Below are positions 3,435 to 24,702 of a stretch of DNA of 24,702 nt, piece after piece (within the stretch, counting starts at the first letter, position 1; each line of letters opens with the position of its first letter). Location: positions 1 through 24,702 of the IMG/VR virus record IMGVR_UViG_2713897075_000003; one strand, written 5' to 3'. The notes under the pieces were generated by a model, which searched no databases, had not been told where the DNA came from, and saw only the letters and a program-made list of their open reading frames with translations. The position numbers and the translations under genes are program-made. Origin of the DNA: a virus. Lineage: Duplodnaviria; Heunggongvirae; Uroviricota; Caudoviricetes.

Positions 3435-3607
3435 CTTACTGCGTACCCTTTCTTCCGCCTGTTCTGTGACGCAGTAGGCTTACGCTTTGCGGCAAAAGCC
3501 ACCTGACCAAATGGATGGAGTACCGCTATCTTATGGTTGCTAATAACCAGCTCCACCACACGCACAGGTCGCTGTAAAAAAAGTCGTTTTGCCTTACGGT
3601 TTTTCAT
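3431..3607 (-). CDS. Hypothetical basic small protein (58 aa, MKNRKAKR...), tandem paralog of 3246..3434
   Basis: Hand translation (below the 60-aa track cutoff): MKNRKAKRLFLQRPVRVVELVISNHKIAVLHPFGQVAFAAKRKPTASQNRRKKGYAVR; RBS AGGAGA 8 nt upstream; about 17-bp start-region repeat shared with the next gene. Confidence 0.3.
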   Translation of the reverse strand: MKNRKAKRLFLQRPVRVVELVISNHKIAVLHPFGQVAFAAKRKPTASQNRRKKGYAVR

Positions 3608-3779
3608 CGCTTTGCTCTCCTGCGTCTCTTTGCTGCTCGTCGTGCCGCTGCAATACCGGTATGGCGGCGCTTTGGTGCTGGGGTGATGTTGTCAGCCATC
3701 AGGACCTGTGGCTTTGCAATTAGCGCAGAAGCCCAAAAACGAGTCGGGTACGGTAACAAGCCAATACATGCCACACGCA

Positions 3780-4226
3780 CTACTCACCTCCGTTGATGCG
3801 AATGCCTGTTGCAATGCTGTTTATGATGCTGTCAGTGCATGGGGTAGAAAGCTGGGCATCTCCAGCAATTTTCATGACATCAACATCTGCATATCGAATA
3901 CCGAGGTGTATCAGACCGGCTATACCTGACTTAAGCCGAGCATTTTCCATAAACAGATCCTTTGCCCGCTGTTTTTCTGCCTCAAGCTCAACGCGCAACT
4001 TCCCTACCGTTAGCGCAATATCCTCGTTCTCCTGGTCGCGGGATTTGATGTATTGCTGGTTTCTTTCCAGTTCATCCAGCAGTGCCAGCGCGATATCTGG
4101 CGAAAAGTGCTTCATAAAATCGTTAAGCGCATTAATTCGCTGATCGAAGGGCATTACAGGTGCTTCACCAGCAATTTTTGTTTTTTCAGCGATTTCACGA
4201 AGCTTTTGATAATCAATCTTGCTCAC
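3780..4226 (-). CDS. Ea22-like family protein (148 aa)
   Basis: GTG start overlapping the upstream stop (GTGA), RBS AAGGAGG; N-terminus MSKIDYQKLREIAEK and coiled-coil [16 protein letters not shown] are typical of the Ea22/Ead-like paralog family of lambdoid prophages. Confidence 0.55.
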   Translation of the reverse strand: MSKIDYQKLREIAEKTKIAGEAPVMPFDQRINALNDFMKHFSPDIALALLDELERNQQYIKSRDQENEDIALTVGKLRVELEAEKQRAKDLFMENARLKSGIAGLIHLGIRYADVDVMKIAGDAQLSTPCTDSIINSIATGIRINGGE

Positions 4227-4810
4227 TGGTTGCCTCCTTTGCGAAGCTGTTCAGCAATACTTACGCATATCTCTGCGCCTCTAATCAGCCCCGGAACGTT
4301 CTTGTTTGGCCCAACTTCACCATCAACAAAATCAATCATCGCGTTACGAGCCATATCCACCCCCTGCGCACGTACTTCAGCCAGGAGAGCGTCGGTAGCT
4401 GGGGTTTCCGTGAAGTTGTCCTCCCAACCGTAGTACTCCTGACGACAGAAGTTATTAAATTCCTTCTCCGACTGTTTAAGCGCCGCATTCTCCACTGCCA
4501 GCGCCGCGCACTTGGCCTCAAGAGCGGCAACCACTTCCTGATGGTCTTTGTACTTAACGTATGAGCCGGAGATGTCATCACCTTCGGTGTTTAGCCATGC
4601 GTCATTGCAATTCACTGCGTAGGTTCTGATGCTGATGCTCTCCCGCCCCTGACAGACGCCAGGCCAGTCAATAAAGTATCCGCAATGCCTACCCTCAGAC
4701 GTGCGCGCAGGATAAATGCCGTTATGACCCGGCAAAATATATGCTACCCATTCATCTTGCGTTGCCTGTTCCGCCGCCTCGCGCAGTTCTTGATAGTTAA
4801 TTTTGCTCAC
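4223..4810 (-). CDS. Ea22-like family protein (195 aa)
   Basis: GTG start; N-terminus MSKINYQELREAAEQ; C-terminal ...AEQLRKGGNQ shared with the paralog at 7778..8488. Confidence 0.55.
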   Translation of the reverse strand: MSKINYQELREAAEQATQDEWVAYILPGHNGIYPARTSEGRHCGYFIDWPGVCQGRESISIRTYAVNCNDAWLNTEGDDISGSYVKYKDHQEVVAALEAKCAALAVENAALKQSEKEFNNFCRQEYYGWEDNFTETPATDALLAEVRAQGVDMARNAMIDFVDGEVGPNKNVPGLIRGAEICVSIAEQLRKGGNQ

Positions 4811-6498: not shown

Positions 6499-6538
6499 AA
6501 TGCATACCGACTCTGTTTTGTTCCGAGCGGTAAAATAA

Positions 6539-6571
6539 TATGTTAGAAAATTAAAATCAACAATCTAACAC
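6539..6571. promoter_or_regulatory. Operator-like inverted repeat TGTTAGA-N16-TCTAACA (site 1), probable internal promoter region
   Basis: aTGTTAGAaaattaaaatcaacaaTCTAACAc in the 104-bp gap between the phosphatase and DUF968-like genes. Same architecture as sites at 10631-10660 and 21481-21510. Coordinates +/-1 because of the 6481 discrepancy. Confidence 0.5.
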
Positions 6572-6602
6572 AGTTTTGAGCGCGTAAACGATGTAACCCG
6601 GC

Positions 6603-14660: not shown

Positions 14661-14876
14661 GTAAACAAAATGAAGTTTTATGTTACAAAAACAATCAACT
14701 ACATCAACATGATTTAGGCCAAATTTCGGTCAAAAAATAAAATCCACAAAAAGTGGTTGACACTATTTTGGAAATCACAAACTGCACATAATCCATCGCG
14801 CTAACGGCTCCCGTTGAAGGTTCTTTTGACGATTAACTTTCAGCCGAAGCGCGGTAGGGAGTCATAACGCCAAAGC

Positions 14877-15717: not shown

Positions 15718-15910
15718 GTCATTCACTCCGTTTAATTTTTAATCTAATGCCAGCAAATGAAGCTGGCCCCCGCATAAAGATTAATGAAAGTCACTTGTCA
15801 CCAGTGAGGGGATTTATGAACCACATCCCCCTGAACTGGTGGCCTGTCTGTTTCTCGCATTTCACACCCTGCATACAGTTTCCACCAGGTTATGACTGAG
15901 AGGCTTTGTT

Positions 15911-16240
15911 ATGGGCTATAGCAGACTCGACGATAGGTACATTGAAGACGATATTTTTCGTGCGCTGTTTCACCAGGAAATGATTAAGCGGGTATCGGAG
16001 TATCACTCTGATAATTTCCAGTACACGATAAAGATTGATGAAGTATATCGTTCAGACCTTGCAGCCTACAGGGCGTATGGCAATGCAGATTTGCGCTGGG
16101 TATTCCGGGTGCTGGTGGGCCATGAGTCAGAAATGGAAGAAATGCCCGCCGGGACCACGTTAACTCTTCCTGATGTCGCATGGCTGAGGAACAAGATCCG
16201 TGATTACGCGAGCGCGGAACCGGAGATAGAAAATGCCTGA
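15911..16240 (+). CDS. Hypothetical protein (109 aa)
   Basis: ORF track; RBS GAGAGG 7 nt upstream; overlaps the next gene by 8 nt. Confidence 0.5.
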   Translation: MGYSRLDDRYIEDDIFRALFHQEMIKRVSEYHSDNFQYTIKIDEVYRSDLAAYRAYGNADLRWVFRVLVGHESEMEEMPAGTTLTLPDVAWLRNKIRDYASAEPEIENA

Positions 16241-17429
16241 TTTCCTGAAAAACCAGGACGGGCGCTATATCACTGATGGCCTGTCCTCTAAGGACTTCAC
16301 GCGTTTATTCGACCTTATCAGTAAAGAACAAACCCGTAAGCGCCGACAAGCTCACCGGACGCTGACGCCCGGCAGACTGAGGAACAAATCCGCCGAAGAT
16401 ATTCTCAAGTTGGGGAAGAAGAAAGGCGGCACGTTCTTTACGCGAGACGATCTGAAAGGCTTCGAAAAGCTACGGAGTAAAACGCGCGAAAAATATGACA
16501 GTAAGACGGCAGGCATCACATACGCCCAGCTGGTGGCATCCAGCCAGGCTATCGATATTAAGCGTGCAAATAACGCCGTGGATGACGGATCTGGTATCAA
16601 AAGAGCTACACCCGTATCTCTTCGCCACAATGTGATTAATATCCGCGTAGAAGCATCGGATATATCCGTCCACCAGCACCATATCGTCCGTATACGCTTT
16701 GAAGAATGGGATCAGATGGTCGATGACATCGCAGAAGACGATAAATCAGCTCTGAAAATCACTAAATCACTGTGCGCCGGGCGGGTGTCTTTCGATTGTG
16801 ACTGTGGTCGTCATCAATACTGGTATCGTTACATCGCTACTGCGGGTAACTTTGCCCTGGCCCCGCCAAAAGAATACGCCTATCCAAAAGTTCGTAACCC
16901 TAAGCTACAAGGCGTCGCCTGTAAACACGTGATCCACTCAATGACGCGGTTACAGTCCGCCAGTTGGCAAATGAGTATTGCTCGTGCGTTACAAAAGGCC
17001 GCAACGCAAATTGCATTTGGTGACGATCGCCGCCGTACAACTAAACACTTCTCAAAAGAAGACGAGAAGGAGTTTAATCGCAATCGTAGCAGTAAAACTA
17101 ACGTTGAAGCCGCCAAACGCGAATGGAGGCTCTATCAGAAACGCCAGGCCGCTTTAAGCACAAAACTGGCAAAGGACAACGGGAAGATTGACAAGCTACG
17201 TGACCAGCTGACCAGGGCCAGAAAGTTGTCCGATGCACAGAAAAAACGGGCAGCAGCAAAAGAAGCAGCCTTGCAACGTGAGAAACAGAAAAACAAGGAG
17301 CTTCAGCAACGCCTTGCCGATCAATTCGCACTGAAGAAGCAAGCGTTCATTGATGCACTGGTCATGGCAGGAACGTCACCTGAGCAAGCTGAAAAAATGT
17401 TTATGGAGTACGTGAAGAAAGGTTCTTGA
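16233..17429 (+). CDS. Hypothetical protein (398 aa) with SWIM-like CxC...CxH zinc-finger motif and basic coiled-coil C-terminus
   Basis: ORF track; RBS GGAGA. Motif FDCDCGRHQYW...GVACKHVIHS (CxC-N33-CxH, a long spacer for SWIM). C-terminal 110 aa are K/R/E/Q/A-rich heptad-like (AAKREWRLYQKRQAALSTKLAKDNGKIDKLRDQL...). Confidence 0.5.
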   Translation: MPDFLKNQDGRYITDGLSSKDFTRLFDLISKEQTRKRRQAHRTLTPGRLRNKSAEDILKLGKKKGGTFFTRDDLKGFEKLRSKTREKYDSKTAGITYAQLVASSQAIDIKRANNAVDDGSGIKRATPVSLRHNVINIRVEASDISVHQHHIVRIRFEEWDQMVDDIAEDDKSALKITKSLCAGRVSFDCDCGRHQYWYRYIATAGNFALAPPKEYAYPKVRNPKLQGVACKHVIHSMTRLQSASWQMSIARALQKAATQIAFGDDRRRTTKHFSKEDEKEFNRNRSSKTNVEAAKREWRLYQKRQAALSTKLAKDNGKIDKLRDQLTRARKLSDAQKKRAAAKEAALQREKQKNKELQQRLADQFALKKQAFIDALVMAGTSPEQAEKMFMEYVKKGS

Positions 17430-17463
17430 TTGACAACAAAGGCGGTCATACAGACCGCCAAAC

Positions 17464-17823
17464 TCATACACCAACCAGGCTTTCAAGAGGAATGCCAAAC
17501 TGGGAATGTAAACGACGAATCATAGGTAACGTTAAATTTCGTGTCCCATTTAGCACTTCGTAAACACGATTTGACTTACCAATCGCCGGTTCCAGATCCT
17601 TCACGGTCAGCCCTTGCTGTTCCATACGGAATTTAATGGCTTCAATAGGTGATGGTGGCTCAATTGGGTAATGCTTTTTCTCGTACTCTTCAATGAGCAG
17701 GCACATTACTTCAAAGAAATCGCCTTCCGGTGTGTTCATTTCCGGTTCGTTATCGAACATCGGTTCGACCGCACGCAGTGCGGCCTCATAATCTTGTTCT
17801 GTACGGATAGGTTTAATGTTCAT
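17464..17823 (-). CDS. higA: HigA-like antitoxin (HTH, 119 aa)
   Basis: Immediately downstream of the HigB-like gene (3-nt gap); C-terminal HTH region GLTVKDLEPAIGKSNRVYEVLNGTRNLTLPMIRRLHSQFGIPLESL resembles HigA-type antitoxins. Confidence 0.65.
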   Translation of the reverse strand: MNIKPIRTEQDYEAALRAVEPMFDNEPEMNTPEGDFFEVMCLLIEEYEKKHYPIEPPSPIEAIKFRMEQQGLTVKDLEPAIGKSNRVYEVLNGTRNLTLPMIRRLHSQFGIPLESLVGV

Positions 17824-17826
17824 GAT

Positions 17827-18129
17827 TTACTCCAGTTCTATTGTATCCGCTTCAATGGCATCGTATTCCTTATGTGTTCCAATAAACTTAACGAACATCC
17901 ATCCTCGCTGATAAGCAATTGCGACAATTAACCTGTAATCATTTCCCTTAATATTGAACACCACGCGCCTGTTTTTAAGGATGCTGGCTGTCCGGTACTG
18001 TTCTTTGATCTCAGCCGGATTTTTCCAGTCAGCCTTTGTTGCTTCATCAACCCATGCCTTTAATGGCTGTTCTGCATCGGGATTCTTCGCCCAGAAATCC
18101 CTTAGTGTTTTTACCGAAATTATTTTCAT
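17827..18129 (-). CDS. higB: HigB-like toxin, RelE/ParE superfamily (100 aa)
   Basis: Internal ATG of track ORF 17827..18186 preceded by GAAGGA. MKIISVKTLRDFWAKNPDAEQPLKAW...YRTASILKNRRVVFNIKGNDYRLIVAIAYQRGWMFVKFIGTHKEYD matches the HigB pattern (...VFN.GGN..R......IR.V.TH.EYD); toxin precedes antitoxin as in higBA. Confidence 0.7.
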   Translation of the reverse strand: MKIISVKTLRDFWAKNPDAEQPLKAWVDEATKADWKNPAEIKEQYRTASILKNRRVVFNIKGNDYRLIVAIAYQRGWMFVKFIGTHKEYDAIEADTIELE

Positions 18130-18159
18130 CACAGATTCCTTCTCGCTGAAAGTATAGTA

Positions 18160-18205
18160 GTCCCAATATGGGACAATGTAAAGCACTTTAGTCCCATGCT
18201 GGGAT
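18160..18205. promoter_or_regulatory. Two palindromic operator-like sites in the higBA promoter region (GTCCCAATATGGGAC and TCCCATGCTGGGA)
   Basis: Two TAGTCCCA...TGGGA palindromes 31 bp apart, directly upstream of higB and divergent from the 18275 operon. Confidence 0.45.
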
Positions 18206-18274
18206 ATGAATTGAAATCACAATCTCCAGACAATGCACCCTCGATACCTGATAAATCGACCTTTGAGGATGCTT

Positions 18275-19066
18275 ATGGGCCGTTTTGACGAATGGTTTGC
18301 TGACGATGCAAACCTGGCAAGTAAGGAGTCAGAACATGACAGCACGCAGAGAGAAACGCCAGCGACGGTTGAAGCGGATGCAGGAGGCGCGCCGGAACAT
18401 GGCAATACCGGTTCGGATTCATTCAGCATTCTGGAAGAGCAACCCGCCGCCAAAGCTGATAGCCATGATAATTTTGCTGATAGCAACGGTGGCCTTACTC
18501 CGGATGCTGGCGAATCAGATATAGCCATACTTCCATCTTCCCTGGCTGGCAGAGAACCGACTCCACAGTTAAAAGCACGCTATAACGGGCATAAAGCCTT
18601 TAACGACCAAATCCGCGCAGACTGGATGCTGATTATTGAATCCAGCCCAGACGCGTTTCAGGCTCTCTTATATCGACCAGATGTTGGCACATATGGGGTA
18701 GTCAGCGACGAAACAGGAGAAGAGTCATTCACCGAACTGGATAACAACCAACGCGAACTGACTTACCAGGAACCTGAAATCGTTTATGTGCTGGATAACC
18801 CTGACGGGCGTGACTCTTTCCATGCGATTGACGCAGACGGTGAGCAGGATGGCTTAACCGATGATGTTCTGATTCTGCGTATTGCAGCAAATAACGTCCC
18901 CGTCGGCTCAATTCTTGAATGGAATGAAGAGATGGTAAACGGCGTAGCGCGCCGCTGGTGGTACGTGCACCGTATTTTTAGCTACGGCACACAGCATGTT
19001 GGTTCGCTTTACTACTGCATACCTGCCAGGAATTTTGATACGACTCAAAACGGAGTGATCGAATGA
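18275..19066 (+). CDS. Hypothetical acidic protein (263 aa) with low-complexity N-terminal region
   Basis: Internal ATG of track ORF 18233..19066 preceded by GAGGA at 6 nt; D/E-rich N-terminal 100 aa; stop overlaps the next start (ATGA). Confidence 0.5.
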   Translation: MGRFDEWFADDANLASKESEHDSTQRETPATVEADAGGAPEHGNTGSDSFSILEEQPAAKADSHDNFADSNGGLTPDAGESDIAILPSSLAGREPTPQLKARYNGHKAFNDQIRADWMLIIESSPDAFQALLYRPDVGTYGVVSDETGEESFTELDNNQRELTYQEPEIVYVLDNPDGRDSFHAIDADGEQDGLTDDVLILRIAANNVPVGSILEWNEEMVNGVARRWWYVHRIFSYGTQHVGSLYYCIPARNFDTTQNGVIE

Positions 19067-19830
19067 CTTCAAATAAAACCCTCCTGGCGCGAACAGGTGA
19101 ATGGCAAACCTCACGCACAGGAAAATTCCAGACCACGGGCTTTGAAAACGTGGATAACGCGTTTGCGACGCTAATCAGCAACATTTTTTCTGATATCTTA
19201 CTGGTGGCCCCCGCGCCGGAAGAAAAACGCTTTGCGTCATTCCTGAATCGTCCACCAGCAGAGCGTGTCTATGTGGCCCGTTTCGACAATGCGATCGAGT
19301 TTCTTAAAGCAGTTCGTCGCGCAAATGCCGGGCAAGGGAGAAAACCTGAAAACCAGAACATTAACCGGGATGCTCTCCCCCTGGTCAATATCTCACGCAA
19401 TATGGATATCAATTATATCAACGATGATCAGCAGATTGACCGCAAAAAAGTAGCCAGTTTTTGCGAACCGGATACCGGAATGCCTTTAGCAGAACTGGAA
19501 TACACCCAGGCCATTCTGACGTATGACGTTACGTTAATGGCAACTGATAAAGCGACCATGAGTCTGATGTGTAATTCGCTGGGCGCACGGCTTCGCCTGA
19601 TGACAGGTACACAATTTGAAGCAACCACTCACCTTGTTCGTGTCCCGGTCCCGCTGATTTGCTCGATACAGGATGCCAAAGAAGTCGGATTTACGGATGT
19701 TTCGGCACCAATTGGAGAAGAGCGTATTTATGCCACACAAGCGCCGATAAGTGTGATTGCAGACGTGATCACAGCATGGGAGTTGGACGCAAAACGTATT
19801 ATTACCGAAACCTCGATATCTATGGGGTGA
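19063..19830 (+). CDS. Hypothetical protein (255 aa), second gene of a four-gene coupled operon
   Basis: ORF track; ATGA overlap with the upstream gene. Confidence 0.5.
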   Translation: MTSNKTLLARTGEWQTSRTGKFQTTGFENVDNAFATLISNIFSDILLVAPAPEEKRFASFLNRPPAERVYVARFDNAIEFLKAVRRANAGQGRKPENQNINRDALPLVNISRNMDINYINDDQQIDRKKVASFCEPDTGMPLAELEYTQAILTYDVTLMATDKATMSLMCNSLGARLRLMTGTQFEATTHLVRVPVPLICSIQDAKEVGFTDVSAPIGEERIYATQAPISVIADVITAWELDAKRIITETSISMG

Positions 19831-19833
19831 TAA

Positions 19834-20814
19834 GTGGCCCAGGAGTTACAACAATATTTTCTACAGTCAGTGCTCATTAACGATAACAAAGTGCCACGAG
19901 ACTGGATTTTTACCGCAGTATATGTAGAAAAAACCAGCCTCAAAGCCCCTTTGCTAAAACTGGAAATTCATGACGCTACCGGCACCGTAATTGATGACTG
20001 GAAAGCCAAATACGGTGCATCGCTGGTGGCTGAAATGGGCGATCCAAACGGTAATGCAGGCACTTTTAAAACAGATTTCTTTGTTACGTCTGCAATGCTG
20101 GCTGGTGATGTTGTTACCGTTATTGCTGTCAGTGAAGACGTGCGCAGGTTTAAGATCCCCTCCCCGCGCACAAATTTACATACCAACAAAACACCAGACG
20201 CTATATTCAAGGCATATTCCGGCAAGCTTAAAATTACCAGCAGCGTGCTAAAACGCGCAGTTACATATCATCTGAATGCCGGTGACAAACCGTCAAAAAT
20301 GCTCTCGCAGATAGCGCGAGACAAAGGTGCATTATGTTGGGTATGCCGTGGGGAATTTAACTTTTACACCCTGGCTGATCTGATGAAGCAAACGCCATCA
20401 TTTACCTACGAGGGGAATAACCCTAAAGCAGAATACACTTTGTCCAAAATGCGCCTACTCCAACAGGAACATGCGACAACAGCAAAGAATCAATATCGTT
20501 TTGTTGGGTATTCCATGACCGATGGCTACGTCGAATATGGCGATAGCTCACTCCCAGTGCGTTATATATCCGACTCTGATATGGAAACTCTTCGCAATAT
20601 GCAGCTGTCTCTCGTCCCCAAAATGGATATAGAAGTCGCAGGCAATCCGGATATAAAACCGGGAATGGTAATAGAGATTATCGTATACCGCTATGACCAG
20701 GAAAACCGCATTGATGAATCAATGCCCCGCAAGCTGATAGTAAAAAATGTTGCGCACTTTGAAGACCGCGTAGGCTACACAACACGAATGATATTAGGAG
20801 TGCCGAACAAATGA
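19834..20814 (+). CDS. Hypothetical protein (326 aa); position suggests baseplate-hub-like partner of the following spike gene
   Basis: GTG start 3 nt after the upstream stop, preceded by GGGGTGA; stop overlaps the next start (ATGA). Function unknown; the hub-like idea comes from gene order only. Confidence 0.45.
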   Translation: MAQELQQYFLQSVLINDNKVPRDWIFTAVYVEKTSLKAPLLKLEIHDATGTVIDDWKAKYGASLVAEMGDPNGNAGTFKTDFFVTSAMLAGDVVTVIAVSEDVRRFKIPSPRTNLHTNKTPDAIFKAYSGKLKITSSVLKRAVTYHLNAGDKPSKMLSQIARDKGALCWVCRGEFNFYTLADLMKQTPSFTYEGNNPKAEYTLSKMRLLQQEHATTAKNQYRFVGYSMTDGYVEYGDSSLPVRYISDSDMETLRNMQLSLVPKMDIEVAGNPDIKPGMVIEIIVYRYDQENRIDESMPRKLIVKNVAHFEDRVGYTTRMILGVPNK

Positions 20815-21464
20815 AGCGTAGAGCGCAAATTGTTGGAACTGTGCACCCGGCAGGGCTTATGCGTGCTCAGGTCCGTGTTTTACCAGACTGGAATGGCGTT
20901 CCTGATGACGATCTACCCTGGGCAGAATACCTGTTACCCATAGGTAACGCGTTTGTACCTACAGTAAAAGGCGACCTGGTATGGGTAGAGTTTCCTTATC
21001 TGGATGTTAATGGTCGAATTGATACCAGACGCCCAATGATAGTTGGCGCAGCTCAGGATGCGCCTGGCGGAGTACCAAACGTCGCGCCGGAGGCGTCAGG
21101 CAATGGTAGCGGCTGGACGCCACCAGAAGTAGACGGAGCGCCTCCCCGCCCGCAATTTTCGGCGACAAAAGATTTCGTGATTCACCGCAACAATGTGCTC
21201 GAAGTGCGAACGGCTGGCGGTGGATATGAAATAGCGAATACGGCAGCAGGCTCAAGGATTGGAATGAATGAATCAGGGCAGATATACATCATTGGTCCGG
21301 CTGATGTAGTAGTGAATGCGGGAGGGAGTGTTAACGTCAAATCAGCCGATAACATCAGCGTTAATGGCAAAAACATTACTGTGACAGCCGACGAAAATAT
21401 TGATTTCAAGGCTGGAGGCACCTTCCAGGCTATCGCAAGCAACTTTGATTTCAAGAAGGGATAG
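20811..21464 (+). CDS. Baseplate assembly protein V / gp5-like spike (OB-fold plus beta-helix repeats), 217 aa
   Basis: N-terminal AQVRVLPDWNGVPDDDLPWAEYLLPIG...KGDLVWVEFPYLDVNGRIDTRRPMIVGA follows the gpV/VgrG N-terminal OB-fold pattern; C-terminus has beta-helix-like repeats VVVNAGGSVNVKSADNISVNGKNITVTADENIDFKAGG. No sheath, tube, wedge or fiber genes are in the window. Confidence 0.5.
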   Translation: MKRRAQIVGTVHPAGLMRAQVRVLPDWNGVPDDDLPWAEYLLPIGNAFVPTVKGDLVWVEFPYLDVNGRIDTRRPMIVGAAQDAPGGVPNVAPEASGNGSGWTPPEVDGAPPRPQFSATKDFVIHRNNVLEVRTAGGGYEIANTAAGSRIGMNESGQIYIIGPADVVVNAGGSVNVKSADNISVNGKNITVTADENIDFKAGGTFQAIASNFDFKKG

Positions 21465-21473
21465 AAAACACAT

Positions 21474-21517
21474 CCAATTGTGTTAGATAATTGAATAGAA
21501 TTTTCTAACACAATTGG
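21474..21517. promoter_or_regulatory. Perfect 14-bp inverted repeat CCAATTGTGTTAGA-N16-TCTAACACAATTGG (operator site 3 / RNA hairpin) upstream of the rdgC-like operon
   Basis: Arms 21474-21487 and 21504-21517, spacer 16 nt; contains the same TGTTAGA/TCTAACA core as sites at 6540 and 10631; ends 6 bp before the RBS of the rdgC-like gene. Confidence 0.55.
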
Positions 21518-21523
21518 TGAAAC

Positions 21524-22429
21524 ATGAGATCAGTCGCTTTCAAAAACATCTTCATCTATCGTCTTTCACGTGAAGTTAACTGGAGTGCCGCAGAAGTATC
21601 CGATGCTCTTAGCAAATTCGTGTTTACTCCTTGCGGTTCTCAGGACACAGCTAAAGTCGGTTGGACACCTGTTCTTGGTGACAACCTCACCCATGAATAC
21701 CAGGGTTTTCTGCTAATACAGCATAAGCGAGAAGAAAAAATTCTCCCCTCGCAGGTGCTCAAGGAAGAGTTGCAGAAAAAAGTCCTGAAACTCGAAGAAG
21801 AGCAAGCCCGCAAGCTGAAGAAAACGGAAAGAGACAGTCTTAAAGATGAAGTCCTGCATTCACTTTTGCCTCGCGCGTTCACGAGAAAATCACTCGCCAA
21901 AATCCTGATCGACCGCAGCAACCATCTGGTATTCGTTGAGGCAAGCAGCGCCAAAAAGGCAGAGGACCAGCTGGCTTTATTGCGAAAGTCGCTCGGCAGC
22001 CTGCCTGTCATTCCATTCACACCACGCGAACCGCTGGAAATTACAATGACCGAGTGGTTTAAAAGCGGCTTCCCTGCCGGATTTACAGCAGGTGAAGACG
22101 CCACATTAAAGGGTCTGCTCGATAATGGTGGTGCCGTTCGCTGCAACAAAGTTGATCTACAGTCCGACGAGATTATGTCTCACATTGAGGCGGGGAAAGT
22201 AGCTACGACCGTTGCAATTAACTGGATGGACCGTGCGTCGTTCAGAGTCAACGATGATATGAGTATCAAAGCCCTGACATTCTGTGATGATCTCTATGAC
22301 CAGAACGACGATATCGACCGGGAGGATGTAGCACAACGATTTGATGCTGATTTCGTGCTCTTTACGGGCGAATTATCTGCACTGTTTAACGCGCTGGTGG
22401 AGGCCATTGGCGGTGAAGCAGAACGATAA
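21524..22429 (+). CDS. rdgC: RdgC-like recombination-associated protein (301 aa)
   Basis: [12 protein letters not shown]...[16 protein letters not shown]...[16 protein letters not shown]...[29 protein letters not shown]...[23 protein letters not shown]...[22 protein letters not shown] is collinear with chromosomal E. coli RdgC as I recall it. Confidence 0.85.
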
Positions 22430-23093
22430 TAACCGACCGCTTGTTGTGAGTCTTTGTGATTTTACGGGGGCAATGGTTGCCCCCTGGCTGGAATACGGTG
22501 TCGATGCCGCTATCGTCGATCCACAGCACTTATCGACCAGTGACGAGCGGATGCAATCAGGTGCCGTTCTGACGCGTATTAGTGCGATCATCGATAGCGA
22601 TGAAGTATACGCTTTTCTCCGTAAGAATTTGCAGCGCATCGTGTTTCTGGCCGGGTTCCCACCGTGTACTGACCTGGCTGTTTCCGGCGCGCGCTGGTTT
22701 TCGGACAAGGCTAATAAAGATCCGGTTTTCCAGTTCAAAGCAATGCAGGTTGTCTGGCAGTGTTATGACATTGCAAAGATGATCGGTTGTCCGTACATGA
22801 TTGAAAATCCGGTCAGCAAAATATCGACATTCTGGCGTAAGCCAGATCACAGCTTTCACCCTTACTTCTTCACTGCATATTGTCAGGAAGATAACTACAC
22901 CAAAAAAACATGCCTCTGGAGCGGCCAGGGCTTTGTCATGCCTGATGCCCTAATGGACGAATCATTAGGCAAGCCAGATAACAGAATCCATGCCGCGCCA
23001 CCAGGGCCTGACAGGGCTAATTTCCGAAGTGCTACTCCACATGGATTCGCAAAGGCAGTTTTCGAAGCGAATAAGGGGGTGCTCTATGAGTAA
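22413..23093 (+). CDS. Truncated C5-cytosine methyltransferase-like catalytic core (about 226 aa; motifs I, IV, VI-like; no target-recognition domain)
   Basis: Probable GTG start 22413 (GGAGG 9 nt upstream), overlapping the rdgC stop. SLCDFTGAM (motif I-like), [15 protein letters not shown] (motif IV-like PC with Cys), MIENPVSKI (ENV-like) occur in the order and spacing expected for the large domain of C5-MTases. Too short to contain a TRD or motifs IX/X. Confidence 0.5.
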
Positions 23094-23991
23094 ATCTATA
23101 GCAAGCATAGCCATAGAAAAACAGGATACGATGGCTGAAATTAGCTATATGCGCACCATTCGGACTCCGGATGAATATGAGCGTCCGATATTCAAATGGG
23201 TAGGTGGTAAATTCTCAGAATTGCCTACAGTGCTTGAGCATCTACCACACGGTAAGCGGTTAATAGAACCATTCGTTGGTGGCGGTTCCGTATTTACGAA
23301 TGCAGGATTTCGCCACAACCTGCTTAATGATATTAACGGTGACCTGATTAACTTCTATCAGACATTGCAGCGAGAAGGACATTCGCTCGTCACGCTGTCA
23401 TATAGTTTTTTCAAAAATTACAACAACGCTGACGCTTACCTCGAAGTGCGTGAGGCATTTAACAGAGGAAAATATGACCAGCTACATCATGCTGCCGCAT
23501 TTTTGTACCTTAATCGTCACTGTTTTAATGGCGTAACGCGGTACAACCAAAATGGCGAGTTCAACGTGGGGTATGGCAAATACAAAGCGCCCTACTTCCC
23601 ACATGCAGAGATGGAGGCATTTTTGGCTGATGACGTACTCAAAAACACTTCCTTTGTATCAGGAGACTTTGCTAGCGTCATCGAGGCGGCTGGTGAAGAC
23701 GATGTGATTTTTTGTGATCCGCCGTATGAACCGCTTCCGGATACAGAGGGATTTACCAGCTATTCAGGAAATAGCTTCCGTTTCGATGAACAAAAACGGC
23801 TTGTATCACTGTTGGTGGATGCCCACCAGCGCGGCGCTAAGGTAGTGATAACAAATAGTGGTGCTCCAAACATCCGTGAGCTATATGAAGGAAACGGGTT
23901 TAAAGTACATCATATGGCAGCCAGACGGTCGGTTTCCTGCAAGGCGTCAACACGTGTAGTTGCTAACGATATAATTGCAATAATGAAGTAA
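23086..23991 (+). CDS. dam: Dam-family DNA N6-adenine methyltransferase (301 aa)
   Basis: ATG 23086 with RBS AAGGGGG, overlapping the upstream stop by 8 nt. PIFKWVGGK...IEPFVGGGSVF...FLYLNRHCFNGVTRYNQNGEFNV...DPPYEP match Dam / T4 Dam motifs including DPPY. Confidence 0.85.
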   Translation: MSKSIASIAIEKQDTMAEISYMRTIRTPDEYERPIFKWVGGKFSELPTVLEHLPHGKRLIEPFVGGGSVFTNAGFRHNLLNDINGDLINFYQTLQREGHSLVTLSYSFFKNYNNADAYLEVREAFNRGKYDQLHHAAAFLYLNRHCFNGVTRYNQNGEFNVGYGKYKAPYFPHAEMEAFLADDVLKNTSFVSGDFASVIEAAGEDDVIFCDPPYEPLPDTEGFTSYSGNSFRFDEQKRLVSLLVDAHQRGAKVVITNSGAPNIRELYEGNGFKVHHMAARRSVSCKASTRVVANDIIAIMK

Positions 23992-24039: not shown

Positions 24040-24702
24040 TTAACCTAACTTCGCCCAGGTATCACGCAGCCCAACGGTGCGGTTAAATACCGGTTTTTCC
24101 GCCGTAGAATGGCGGCTGTCGAGGCAGAAATAACCTTCACGCTCAAACTGGAATGCTTTACCCGCTACCGCTTCTTTCAGCGACGGTTCAGCAAAGCCTT
24201 GTTTGATCACCAGCGATTCCGGGTTAATCACCGACAGGAAATCATCCGCAGCACCTGGGTTCGGCACGTTGAACAGACGATCGTACAGGCGGATTTCAAC
24301 CGGCAGCGCATGTGCCGCGCTCACCCAGTGAATAACGCCTTTCACTTTACGACCATCTGCCGGATCTTTGCTTAAGGTGTCGGCGTCATAAGTACAGAAG
24401 ATGGTGGTGATATTACCTTCGGCATCTTTCTCCACGCGTTCAGCCTTAATGACGTAAGCATTACGCAGACGCACTTCTTTACCCAGCACCAGACGTTTGT
24501 ACTGCTTGTTAGCTTCTTCTCGGAAATCGGCGCGGTCGATCCAAATCTCACCGCTAAACGGCACCTGACGGCTACCCATTTCCGGTTTGTTTGGATGGTT
24601 CGGCATGGTGACCATTTCGCCTTCGCCCTGGTAGTTTTCGATAACCAGTTTCACCGGATCGATAACCGCCATTGCGCGCGGGGCATTTTCGTTGAGATCT
24701 TC
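24040..24702 (-). CDS. glnS: Glutaminyl-tRNA synthetase, C-terminal part (5' end beyond window)
   Basis: Translation ...[101 protein letters not shown] is near-identical to the anticodon-binding domain of enterobacterial GlnS; the ORF runs to the window edge. Confidence 0.9.

Follow-up and report, generated by a model that had tools for sequence, protein, structure and literature searches.

In P1-type phages the tail genes are scattered over several late operons (PMC9024508). In P1 itself the order 26-25-7-24-6-5 lies behind the late promoter LP26. Genes 25 and 7 of P1 adjoin without a gap, the single late promoter has the -22 box AAGTNACTT, and the operon is followed by dbn/ban. P1 Gp7 is the stopper, seen by cryo-EM as a ring of six subunits that links the tail terminator to the adaptor PmgC (PMC12810830), and the terminator is Gp24, a hexamer capping tube and sheath (PMC10304247). 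Gp6 is the baseplate hub, of the T4 gp27 / Mu gp44 type according to the P1 papers (PMC12810830, PMC9024508). The structure of Gp5 was solved within the P1 baseplate (9vzk; PMC12810830), where cryo-EM shows a spike trimer resting on the hub, with a PAAR protein as its cap (PMC12810830). Gp26 was named 'plug' (PMC12810830). The second closely related system is Escherichia phage D6 (NC_050154 / MF356679; Gilcrease & Casjens 2018), in whose record orf69-orf66 are annotated as similar to P1 genes 7, 24, 6 and 5.

Layout and identity of the four-gene block

The window, i.e. the whole stretch of viral DNA analysed here, is 24.7 kb long and represents only part of its source replicon. It contains four consecutive ORFs of 263, 255, 326 and 217 aa:

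18275-19066, plus strand: P1 gene 7 homologue (263 aa), stopper (head-completion) protein, assigned by PDB, PHROG and identity to P1 and D6
19063-19830, plus strand: P1 gene 24 homologue (255 aa), tail terminator, assigned by PDB, family profile and PHROG
19834-20814, plus strand: P1 gene 6 homologue (326 aa) with a GTG start, predicted trimeric baseplate hub, assigned by PDB and PHROG
20811-21464, plus strand: P1 gene 5 homologue (217 aa), predicted trimeric central spike with N-terminal OB-fold and C-terminal beta-helix, without a lysozyme domain

The initial annotation had described these ORFs as a coupled operon that diverges from higBA, ends at an operator-like inverted repeat and is followed by an rdgC-methyltransferase operon, and this layout was borne out. 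The junctions are, in order, ATGA, TGA-taa-GTG and ATGA; since stop and start codons overlap, the four genes may be translationally coupled. The start of higB is at 18129 and points in the opposite direction, while the inverted repeat with 19-nt arms (21474-21517) begins 10 bp past the last stop codon. Downstream are rdgC/hrdC and two methyltransferases, and there are no tail genes among them.

The block shares 96.5% DNA identity with D6 orf69-66, which have the same genes, order and junctions; the proteins of genes 7, 24, 6 and 5 are 97.7%, 99.6%, 99.4% and 92.2% identical, respectively. The D6 neighbours are those of the window as well, with mat, 26 and 25 upstream and hrdC and methyltransferases downstream. 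A 91.6-kb E. coli plasmid (NZ_CP069886.1) matched the block at 99.8% DNA identity, and every one of the 101 matches in complete E. coli genomes lay on a plasmid, with none on a chromosome. The relatives are plasmids of 75-130 kb.

P1 has genes 7, 24, 6 and 5 in the same order with overlapping junctions at protein identities of 46%, 22%, 37% and 46% (BLASTP), but its operon is followed by dbn/ban instead of hrdC. In phmmer searches of the PDB all four window proteins matched solved P1 virion proteins. None of the four was above threshold in Pfam; the identities came from PHROGs and the PDB sequence searches. Co-oriented genes for stopper, terminator, hub and spike with overlapping or nearly abutting junctions were present in the window, P1, D6 and 16 full-length enterobacterial loci.

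We are thus highly confident that the four genes make up the late morphogenesis operon 7-24-6-5 of a D6-like myovirus, which is related to P1 and is maintained in E. coli as a phage-plasmid of about 90 kb. By homology these are the usual genes for neck stopper, tail terminator, baseplate hub and puncturing spike in a D6-like plasmid prophage, the roles being transferred at 22-46% identity from P1, for which the cryo-EM papers are the source. By these assignments only two of the four, hub and spike, are baseplate parts, and the 263-aa and 255-aa proteins would act at the head-tail junction. The block is already known, and its importance beyond correct annotation is small. RefSeq labels the genes 'hypothetical protein', 'phage tail protein', 'baseplate' and 'carbohydrate-binding domain-containing protein'; homology to the solved P1 structures now permits the names neck stopper, tail terminator, baseplate hub and central spike.

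Stopper, terminator and hub

Residues 97-256 of the 263-aa protein matched P1 Gp7 (9ums_B) with an E-value of 5e-43, and the protein matched phrog_1906 (E 2e-116). Started at an upstream ATG (18233), the ORF would encode 277 aa. The strongly acidic, low-complexity N-terminus noted earlier was confirmed: residues 1-98 have a pI of 4.05 with 21 D+E vs 5 K+R. The N-terminus of P1 gp7 is equally acidic, and P1 and the window also share a spike without lysozyme domain (PMC12810830, PMC9024508).

The 255-aa protein matched P1 Gp24 (8jan_y) with E 1.6e-14 and phrog_1767 with E 5e-113, and a family profile built from the related loci matched P1 Gp24 over positions 2-233 with E 8e-49. The 326-aa protein matched P1 Gp6 (9vzk_1) over residues 6-325 with E 1.9e-71 and phrog_1390 with E 3e-144.

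The spike and its relation to other contractile systems

The 217-aa protein had been called a gp5/gpV-like spike with an OB-fold and a beta-helix. PDB homology, an AF2 model and a Foldseek search all agreed with this call. The sequence matched P1 Gp5 (9vzk_q) with E 5.4e-54. The AF2 model had a pLDDT of 92.8 with five strands in residues 3-80, and both the OB-fold and the beta-helix were present. The Foldseek search of the model, which the initial annotation had proposed, returned P1 gp5 (9vzk_q) as the top match with E 2e-21, followed by VgrG, AFP, PVC and eCIS spikes, the R2 pyocin spike, P2 gpV (3qr8) and Mu (9ki1_V). The OB part alone also matched IF-1. Pfam PF04717 was present in more distant homologues of the spike.

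An OB-fold with a trimeric beta-helix is the architecture that the spike shares with those of other contractile systems (spike/hub pairs T4 gp5/gp27, P2 gpV/gpD and Mu gp45/gp44, T6SS VgrG and the R2 pyocin spike). Foldseek probabilities were 0.99-1.0 for P2 gpV 3qr8, Mu 9ki1_V, R2 pyocin 4s37 and several VgrG structures, although sequence identity of the contractile-system spikes to the 217-aa protein was only 11-19%. Unlike T4 gp5 the window spike has no lysozyme domain, and unlike VgrG it is encoded by a gene separate from that of the hub. The gene context is different, too, because the window operon is shared with a neck stopper and a tail terminator.

The initial annotation had considered a repurposed spike-containing system. 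Hub and spike would then serve a non-phage device, for instance a tailocin, an eCIS or a T6SS-like effector carrier, with the other two proteins as 'unknown partners'. The VgrG, AFP, PVC and eCIS spikes among the fold matches after P1 gp5 are in line with such a system, as is a weak Pfam match of the spike to DUF2345 (VgrG C-terminal; E 0.0055, under the curated threshold). Yet these 'unknown partners' have solved P1 virion proteins as homologues, one being a head-completion stopper and the other a tail terminator, which makes sense only for a phage that bears a head. Further, the neighbours are the D6/P1 genes mat, 26, 25, hrdC, dmt-like, ref, ant and ppp, and the spike has no fused effector domain. 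We regard repurposing as scarcely credible.

The 3' half of gene 5 differs from D6 as a mosaic patch with 81-83% nucleotide identity. Because the amino-acid identity of 92% exceeds that of the nucleotides in the 3' part, with changes that are mostly synonymous, the sequence is consistent with purifying selection on gene 5.

Tail genes in the window and beyond

The claim that no other tail genes accompany the block did not hold. Just across higBA we found homologues of P1 genes 26 and 25:

15911-16240, plus strand: P1 gene 26 homologue (baseplate plug, T4 gp53-like), opening the upstream half of the ancestral operon
16233-17429, plus strand: P1 gene 25 homologue, tail protein with a tentative role in 'tail stability' in P1

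The gene 26 product is 100% identical to D6 orf75 and 41% to P1 gp26, and it matched phrog_1269 (baseplate wedge subunit) with E 2e-36. The gene 25 product is 98% identical to D6 orf74 and 56% to P1 gp25, with a match to phrog_1722 at E 3e-196. The genes around the block (mat, 26, 25, hrdC, dmt-like, ref, ant and ppp) belong to the D6/P1 set. Among 29 related loci, 16 full-length enterobacterial ones, mostly on contigs of 80-105 kb, had the full 26-25-7-24-6-5 order. It was kept in part in 12 more distant or damaged loci (Vibrio, Desulfovibrio, SAR324 and others), and the remaining one is a 1.8-kb fragment.

In D6-type replicons the tail genes not present in the window lie elsewhere, namely those for sheath, tube, tape measure, wedges, fibres and PAAR tip. 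In D6 these comprise sheath (22), tube (bplB), tub, pmgG, sit, pmgA, bplA, 16, the R/S/U fibres and upfC (PAAR)/upfB. The other tail genes were also present in the 43 kb viewed of NZ_CP069886.1, the PAAR gene (upfC homologue) included; both replicons have them 7-20 kb farther on, arranged in the same way. Within the 87.4 kb of D6 examined, every one of the six tail proteins of the window had a single copy, and a second hub or spike was not detected. A tail cluster with its own hub and spike was not found in D6 because the four-gene operon supplies the only hub and spike of the phage.

These data bear on the other initial proposal, that the block is a stranded remnant of a contractile-tail baseplate module. 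The rest of the prophage would then have decayed, and the block would no longer build a tail. The absence of sheath, tube, tape-measure and fibre genes from the 24.7-kb window would fit decay. However, the six tail ORFs of the window are intact with 92-100% protein identity to the viable phage D6, the divergent part of gene 5 has changed mostly synonymously, both relatives examined, D6 and NZ_CP069886.1, carry the remaining tail genes in the same layout, and dispersed tail genes are the normal arrangement in P1 (PMC9024508). A remnant is therefore most unlikely. The block is the normal 7-24-6-5 of a D6-like phage-plasmid, whose other tail genes would lie elsewhere on the replicon. As the case shows, a spike gene standing alone in a short window is not necessarily an orphan, since tail genes are dispersed in P1-type phages.

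For the D6-like phage the following assembly is proposed. A trimer of the gp6 homologue would form the baseplate hub, and below it a trimer of the gp5 homologue would form the spike of OB-fold and beta-helix, capped by the PAAR protein (UpfC) encoded elsewhere on the replicon. Wedges and tube initiator would then assemble around the hub-spike core. Once tube and sheath are polymerised, a gp24 hexamer would terminate the tail, while a gp7 hexamer would close the head connector and dock on gp24, joining head and tail.

A toxin-antitoxin cassette separates genes 25 and 7

A cassette on the minus strand fills the interval between the two genes:

17464-18129, minus strand: higBA-type toxin-antitoxin (TA) cassette, inserted between genes 25 and 7
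17464-17823, minus strand: HTH antitoxin (Pfam HTH_3, E 3.5e-05)
17827-18129, minus strand: HigB toxin (Pfam HigB_toxin, E 3e-34)
17441-17459, minus strand: terminator hairpin of the higBA cassette, T-run on the minus strand only
18154-18205, minus strand: predicted higBA sigma-70 promoter TTTACA-17-TACTAT, by sequence motif

As judged from the sequence, the TA insertion split an ancestral (mat-)26-25-7-24-6-5 operon in the window lineage. The slot is variable among D6-like plasmids and empty in most relatives fetched. The window has just the HigB/HTH pair in this slot; D6 instead has orf73, an HTH regulator and a RelE/ParE-type TA pair there.

Two palindromes accompany the higBA promoter, GTCCCAATATGGGAC at 18160-18174 inside its spacer and GTCCCATGCTGGGAT at 18191-18205 upstream of it. 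Going by the usual layout of TA autoregulation, both are probably antitoxin operators. We rejected them as Lpa boxes in favour of antitoxin operators, since they bracket the TTTACA-17-TACTAT promoter facing higB, have no further copy in the window and are missing from D6, whose TA cassette is a different one. The hairpin at 17441-17459 was ruled out as a plus-strand terminator because its T-run is solely on the minus strand.

A candidate late promoter of D6 type

The palindrome at 18191-18205 ends 8 bp ahead of a box that is also found before gene 7 of D6:

18214-18234, plus strand: candidate D6-type (Lpa-dependent) late promoter, by sequence motif with inferred function

The box AAATCACA occupies 18214-18221 and is separated by 7 nt from the -10-like hexamer GACAAT (18229-18234). 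The motif AAATCACA-N7-[TCG]ANNNT occurs at 8 sites in 87 kb of D6 vs 0.2 expected. In all eight the orientation is sense, and a lysis or morphogenesis gene, in one case gene 7, lies 50-160 bp downstream of the start of the box. D6 also encodes an Lpa-like protein. Transcription of the four genes is most likely late and dependent on an Lpa-like activator, and would start from 18214-18234. The separate promoter of gene 7 in the window lineage would be explained by the TA cassette having split the ancestral operon; P1, in contrast, has a single late promoter, with a -22 box that differs from AAATCACA.

A promoter identical to that of P1 was rejected for gene 7. Scanning with AAGTNACTT-N4-TANNNT, a pattern derived from five annotated P1 promoters (9-bp -22 box, 4 nt, -10 hexamer), yielded no site upstream of the gene; the only good P1-type sites in the window were at 15796 and 21445, both on the minus strand. 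No intrinsic plus-strand terminator was found downstream of gene 5 or in the interval from gene 25 to gene 7, so that the transcript boundaries are uncertain.

The late operon of the D6 lineage might be a site where TA cassettes are swapped, with cassette promoter and operators standing back-to-back with a dedicated late promoter, so that the TA state is possibly coupled to expression of stopper, terminator, hub and spike. We consider this improbable. Coupling might occur by binding of the antitoxin or by antisense late transcription through higBA from the 26-25 side. The reverse is possible as well, namely that late transcription releases the toxin in lytic growth. The variable TA slot between genes 25 and 7 and the candidate D6-specific late-promoter motif are by-products that are perhaps useful to those working on phage-plasmids.

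The 3' boundary

The four-gene operon is bounded on its 3' side by an operator-like inverted repeat:

21474-21517, no strand assigned: inverted repeat with 19-nt arms and a 6-nt gap, marking the 3' boundary of the operon

The repeat overlaps a sigma-70-like -10 sequence for the hrdC-methyltransferase operon, GATAAT, at 21486-21491, and its half-site AATTGTGTTAGAWAATT resembles the P1 C1 operator O26, ATTGCACTAATAATTTT. It is a probable bivalent C1-type operator. A weaker pair was seen at 6536-6575.

Layout of the operon and its neighbours

The ORF table, Pfam and a repeat search bore out the arrangement given in the initial annotation, i.e. four coupled ORFs, a divergent higBA toxin-antitoxin cassette and a terminal inverted repeat. 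The tail genes are named here after their homologues in phage P1.

15911-16240, far side of higBA: baseplate protein, gene 26 homologue (phrog_1269, E 2e-36)
16233-17429, adjoining higBA: tail protein, gene 25 homologue (phrog_1722, E 3e-196)
17464-18129, divergent from gene 7: HigB toxin and HTH antitoxin (Pfam, HigB E 3e-34)
18233/18275-19066, + strand: gene 7, 277/263 aa
19063-19830, + strand: gene 24, 255 aa
19834-20814, + strand: gene 6, 326 aa, GTG start
20811-21464, + strand: gene 5, 217 aa

The junctions 7/24, 24/6 and 6/5 were ATGA, TGA-taa-GTG and ATGA, respectively. The inverted repeat (21474-21517) was followed by genes for RdgC/HrdC (Pfam E 5e-103) and two DNA methyltransferases, and then by a piece of glnS. 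The earlier statement that other tail genes are lacking did not hold, as the homologues of genes 26 and 25 lie just across higBA. The gene 25 product has 398 aa with a K/E/Q-rich C-terminal third; P1 gp25 gave only a weak signal in virions and was left unplaced in the cryo-EM maps (PMC12810830, PMC9024508).

Identity of the proteins

The region was 96.5% identical to Escherichia phage D6, a P1-related phage-plasmid, and matched 100 plasmids from complete E. coli genomes, the best being a 91.6-kb plasmid with 99.8%, while no chromosomal match was found in these genomes (megablast). In the D6 record orf69-66 are annotated as similar to P1 genes 7, 24, 6 and 5, and similarity to P1 genes 26 and 25 is noted for the two genes upstream.

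Protein identities to D6 and P1 (BLASTP)
Gene 26: 100% to D6, 41% to P1
Gene 25: 98% to D6, 56% to P1
Gene 7: 97.7% to D6, 46% to P1
Gene 24: 99.6% to D6, 22% to P1
Gene 6: 99.4% to D6, 37% to P1
Gene 5: 92.2% to D6, 46% to P1

Pfam gave no match above threshold for any of the four operon proteins. With PHROGs the products of genes 7, 24 and 6 were assigned to phrog_1906 (tail protein, E 2e-116), phrog_1767 (baseplate protein, E 5e-113) and phrog_1390 (tail protein, E 3e-144); that of gene 5 matched only the N-terminal part of phrog_430 (baseplate hub/tail lysozyme, E 7.5e-42).

All four proteins matched chains of the P1 virion: Gp7 (9ums_B, E 5e-43), Gp24 (8jan_y, E 1.6e-14), Gp6 (9vzk_1, E 2e-71) and Gp5 (9vzk_q, E 5e-54). 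With a profile of the 255-aa family built from 11 relatives the Gp24 match improved to E 8e-49 and spanned almost the whole length. By cryo-EM the tail of P1 is terminated by a gp24 hexamer, gp7 is the neck stopper, gp6 forms the trimeric hub and gp5 a trimeric spike, which has UpfC, a PAAR protein, as its cap and no counterpart of the T4 lysozyme domain (PMC12810830, PMC10304247); HHpred assignments of P1 proteins preceded these structures (PMC9024508). The acidic character noted for the first protein was evident from a pI of 4.05 for residues 1-98. The acidic, low-complexity N-terminus is shared by P1 gp7 with a similar composition, and both proteins start G-(R/F)-F-D.

The 217-aa protein was modelled by AlphaFold2 from a 46-sequence alignment with a mean pLDDT of 92.8. 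The top Foldseek match in the PDB was P1 gp5 (E 2e-21, TM 0.72), followed by the spikes of eCIS/AFP/PVC particles, T6SS VgrG, R2 pyocin, P2 gpV (3qr8) and Mu (9ki1_V). With the N-terminal domain alone, IF-1-type OB folds were matched as well. Thus model and matches upheld the proposed gp5/gpV-like spike. The operon has been annotated before, it belongs to a known family of phages, and structures have been solved for homologues of its proteins.

Place of the operon in the tail gene set

The initial annotation had considered a stranded baseplate remnant or a repurposed spike-containing system. In P1 the same six genes form a single late operon, LP26 -> 26-25-7-24-6-5, and the remaining tail genes are scattered (PMC9024508). 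D6 (91-kb genome) carries elsewhere the sheath gene 22, gene 21, pmgG, the tube gene bplB, pmgC, tub and pmgB, furthermore sit, pmgA, bplA, 16, R/S/U and the accompanying cin inversion system, as well as upfC (PAAR)/upfB. The same arrangement is seen at 7-20 kb downstream from the operon in the matching E. coli plasmid. In a tblastn search of 87.4 kb of D6, each of the six tail proteins of the window had exactly one match; within this stretch the operon is hence the only source of hub and spike. We concluded that it is very probably neither stranded nor repurposed, and that its apparent isolation is due to the short window and the P1-type dispersed gene layout.

A scan for the spike family in 185,579 species genomes yielded 29 loci. 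The order (mat-)26-25-7-24-6-5 was complete in 16 of them, the full-length enterobacterial loci from Citrobacter, Pantoea, Enterobacter, Rosenbergiella, Serratia, Xenorhabdus, Erwinia, Buttiauxella, Escherichia and an unclassified enterobacterium, mostly on contigs of 80-105 kb. Twelve had a partial order (Xenorhabdus szentirmaii, with fragmented matches, and the more distant Vibrio, Kiloniella, a Xenorhabdus plasmid, Desulfovibrio, Bilophila and SAR324), and one was a 1.8-kb fragment.

The 3' part of gene 5 (20841-21464) is a mosaic patch relative to D6, identical in plasmid NZ_CP069886.1. Nucleotide identity to D6 was 92% at 20841-21040 and 81-83% from 21041, as against 97-100% in other parts of the operon. 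The protein carries 17 amino-acid changes between residues 88 and 210, ten of them in the beta-helix (residues 180-210). A protein identity of 92%, yet only 81-83% for the DNA of the 3' half, is consistent with purifying selection.

The toxin-antitoxin insertion and a candidate late promoter

Genes 25 and 7 adjoin in P1, only 3 bp apart, and tblastn matches to the two were separated by about 20-30 bp in several relatives, whereas in the window, D6 and a Citrobacter element an opposite-strand toxin-antitoxin cassette parts them. This junction is a variable toxin-antitoxin slot (window 17430-18274; fetched loci L001 17921-20034 and L006, the Citrobacter element, 3547-4496). The HigB/HTH pair of the window was found in 17 of 100 D6-like E. 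coli plasmids; a RelE/ParE-HigA-HTH set is carried by D6, there with one further ORF, and by the majority of the remaining plasmids listed, and the Citrobacter pair is of yet another type. In the 145-bp intergenic region, a predicted TTTACA-17-TACTAT promoter on the higBA side contains the palindrome GTCCCAATATGGGAC in its spacer and has a second palindrome, GTCCCATGCTGGGAT, upstream; both are probably antitoxin operators.

On the gene 7 side lies the motif AAATCACA-N7-GACAAT (18214-18234); a further site of this type is at 14772-14792. The general form AAATCACA-N7-[TCG]ANNNT occurred at eight sites in 87 kb of D6 (19215, 25241, 27747, 38135, 45511, 54144, 67413 and 72120 of the record) versus 0.2 expected from Markov shuffles. 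All eight were intergenic and sense-oriented, and from the beginning of the box to the start codon the distance was 50-160 bp. They precede lysis or morphogenesis genes, namely those for lysozyme, mat, gene 7, gene 23, pmgB, R, ddrB and prt. The sites before R and the lysozyme gene match the positions of LPs and LPlyz, two late promoters annotated in P1, and variants precede gene 7 in the Citrobacter locus and mat in a Pantoea locus. The box differs from the P1 -22 box AAGTNACTT, and D6 encodes an activator of the Lpa type. From enrichment, placement, the deviating box and this activator we infer a D6-type late promoter, which, judged by sequence, would let 7-24-6-5 be expressed despite the insertion.

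A looser variant, ATTTCACACCCTGCATACAGT, is present at about 15859-15879, with the start codon of gene 26 some 30 bp further downstream. Furthermore, a perfect P1-type -22 palindrome AAGTCACTT (15788-15796), conserved in D6, is paired with a TAATCT -10 in minus-strand orientation and points away from gene 26, as LPpmgL does in P1; on the plus strand a -10 at P1 spacing was absent.

The 3' boundary and annotation of relatives

The repeat at 21474-21517 starts 10 bp past the gene 5 stop codon and has 19-nt arms, the half-sites AATTGTGTTAGAWAATT being a perfect pair (four half-site matches versus 0.14 expected). They resemble O26 (ATTGCACTAATAATTTT), a C1 operator of P1, and the repeat overlaps a sigma-70-like -10 (GATAAT) directly before hrdC. 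Its earlier designation as an operator is reasonable; it belongs to the downstream operon and not to the tail genes. A weaker pair with three mismatches (6536-6575) lies between a ppp-like phosphatase gene and a DUF968/HNH (pdcB-like) gene.

Downstream of hrdC two overlapping methyltransferase ORFs (22341-23991 and 24040-24672) encode a phrog_757 methyltransferase and a D12-class Dam-like enzyme, where P1 has a single fused dmt. The truncated glutaminyl-tRNA synthetase gene (glnS) reaches past the window end and is also present in D6.

In RefSeq the spike gene of NZ_CP069886.1 (22627-23232 of the fetched locus L002) is named 'carbohydrate-binding domain-containing protein' and its start is set 16 codons downstream of that in D6, the hub is a 'hypothetical protein', and in other records gene 7 is labelled 'tail length tape measure protein'. 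These are annotation errors correctable from the P1 structures.
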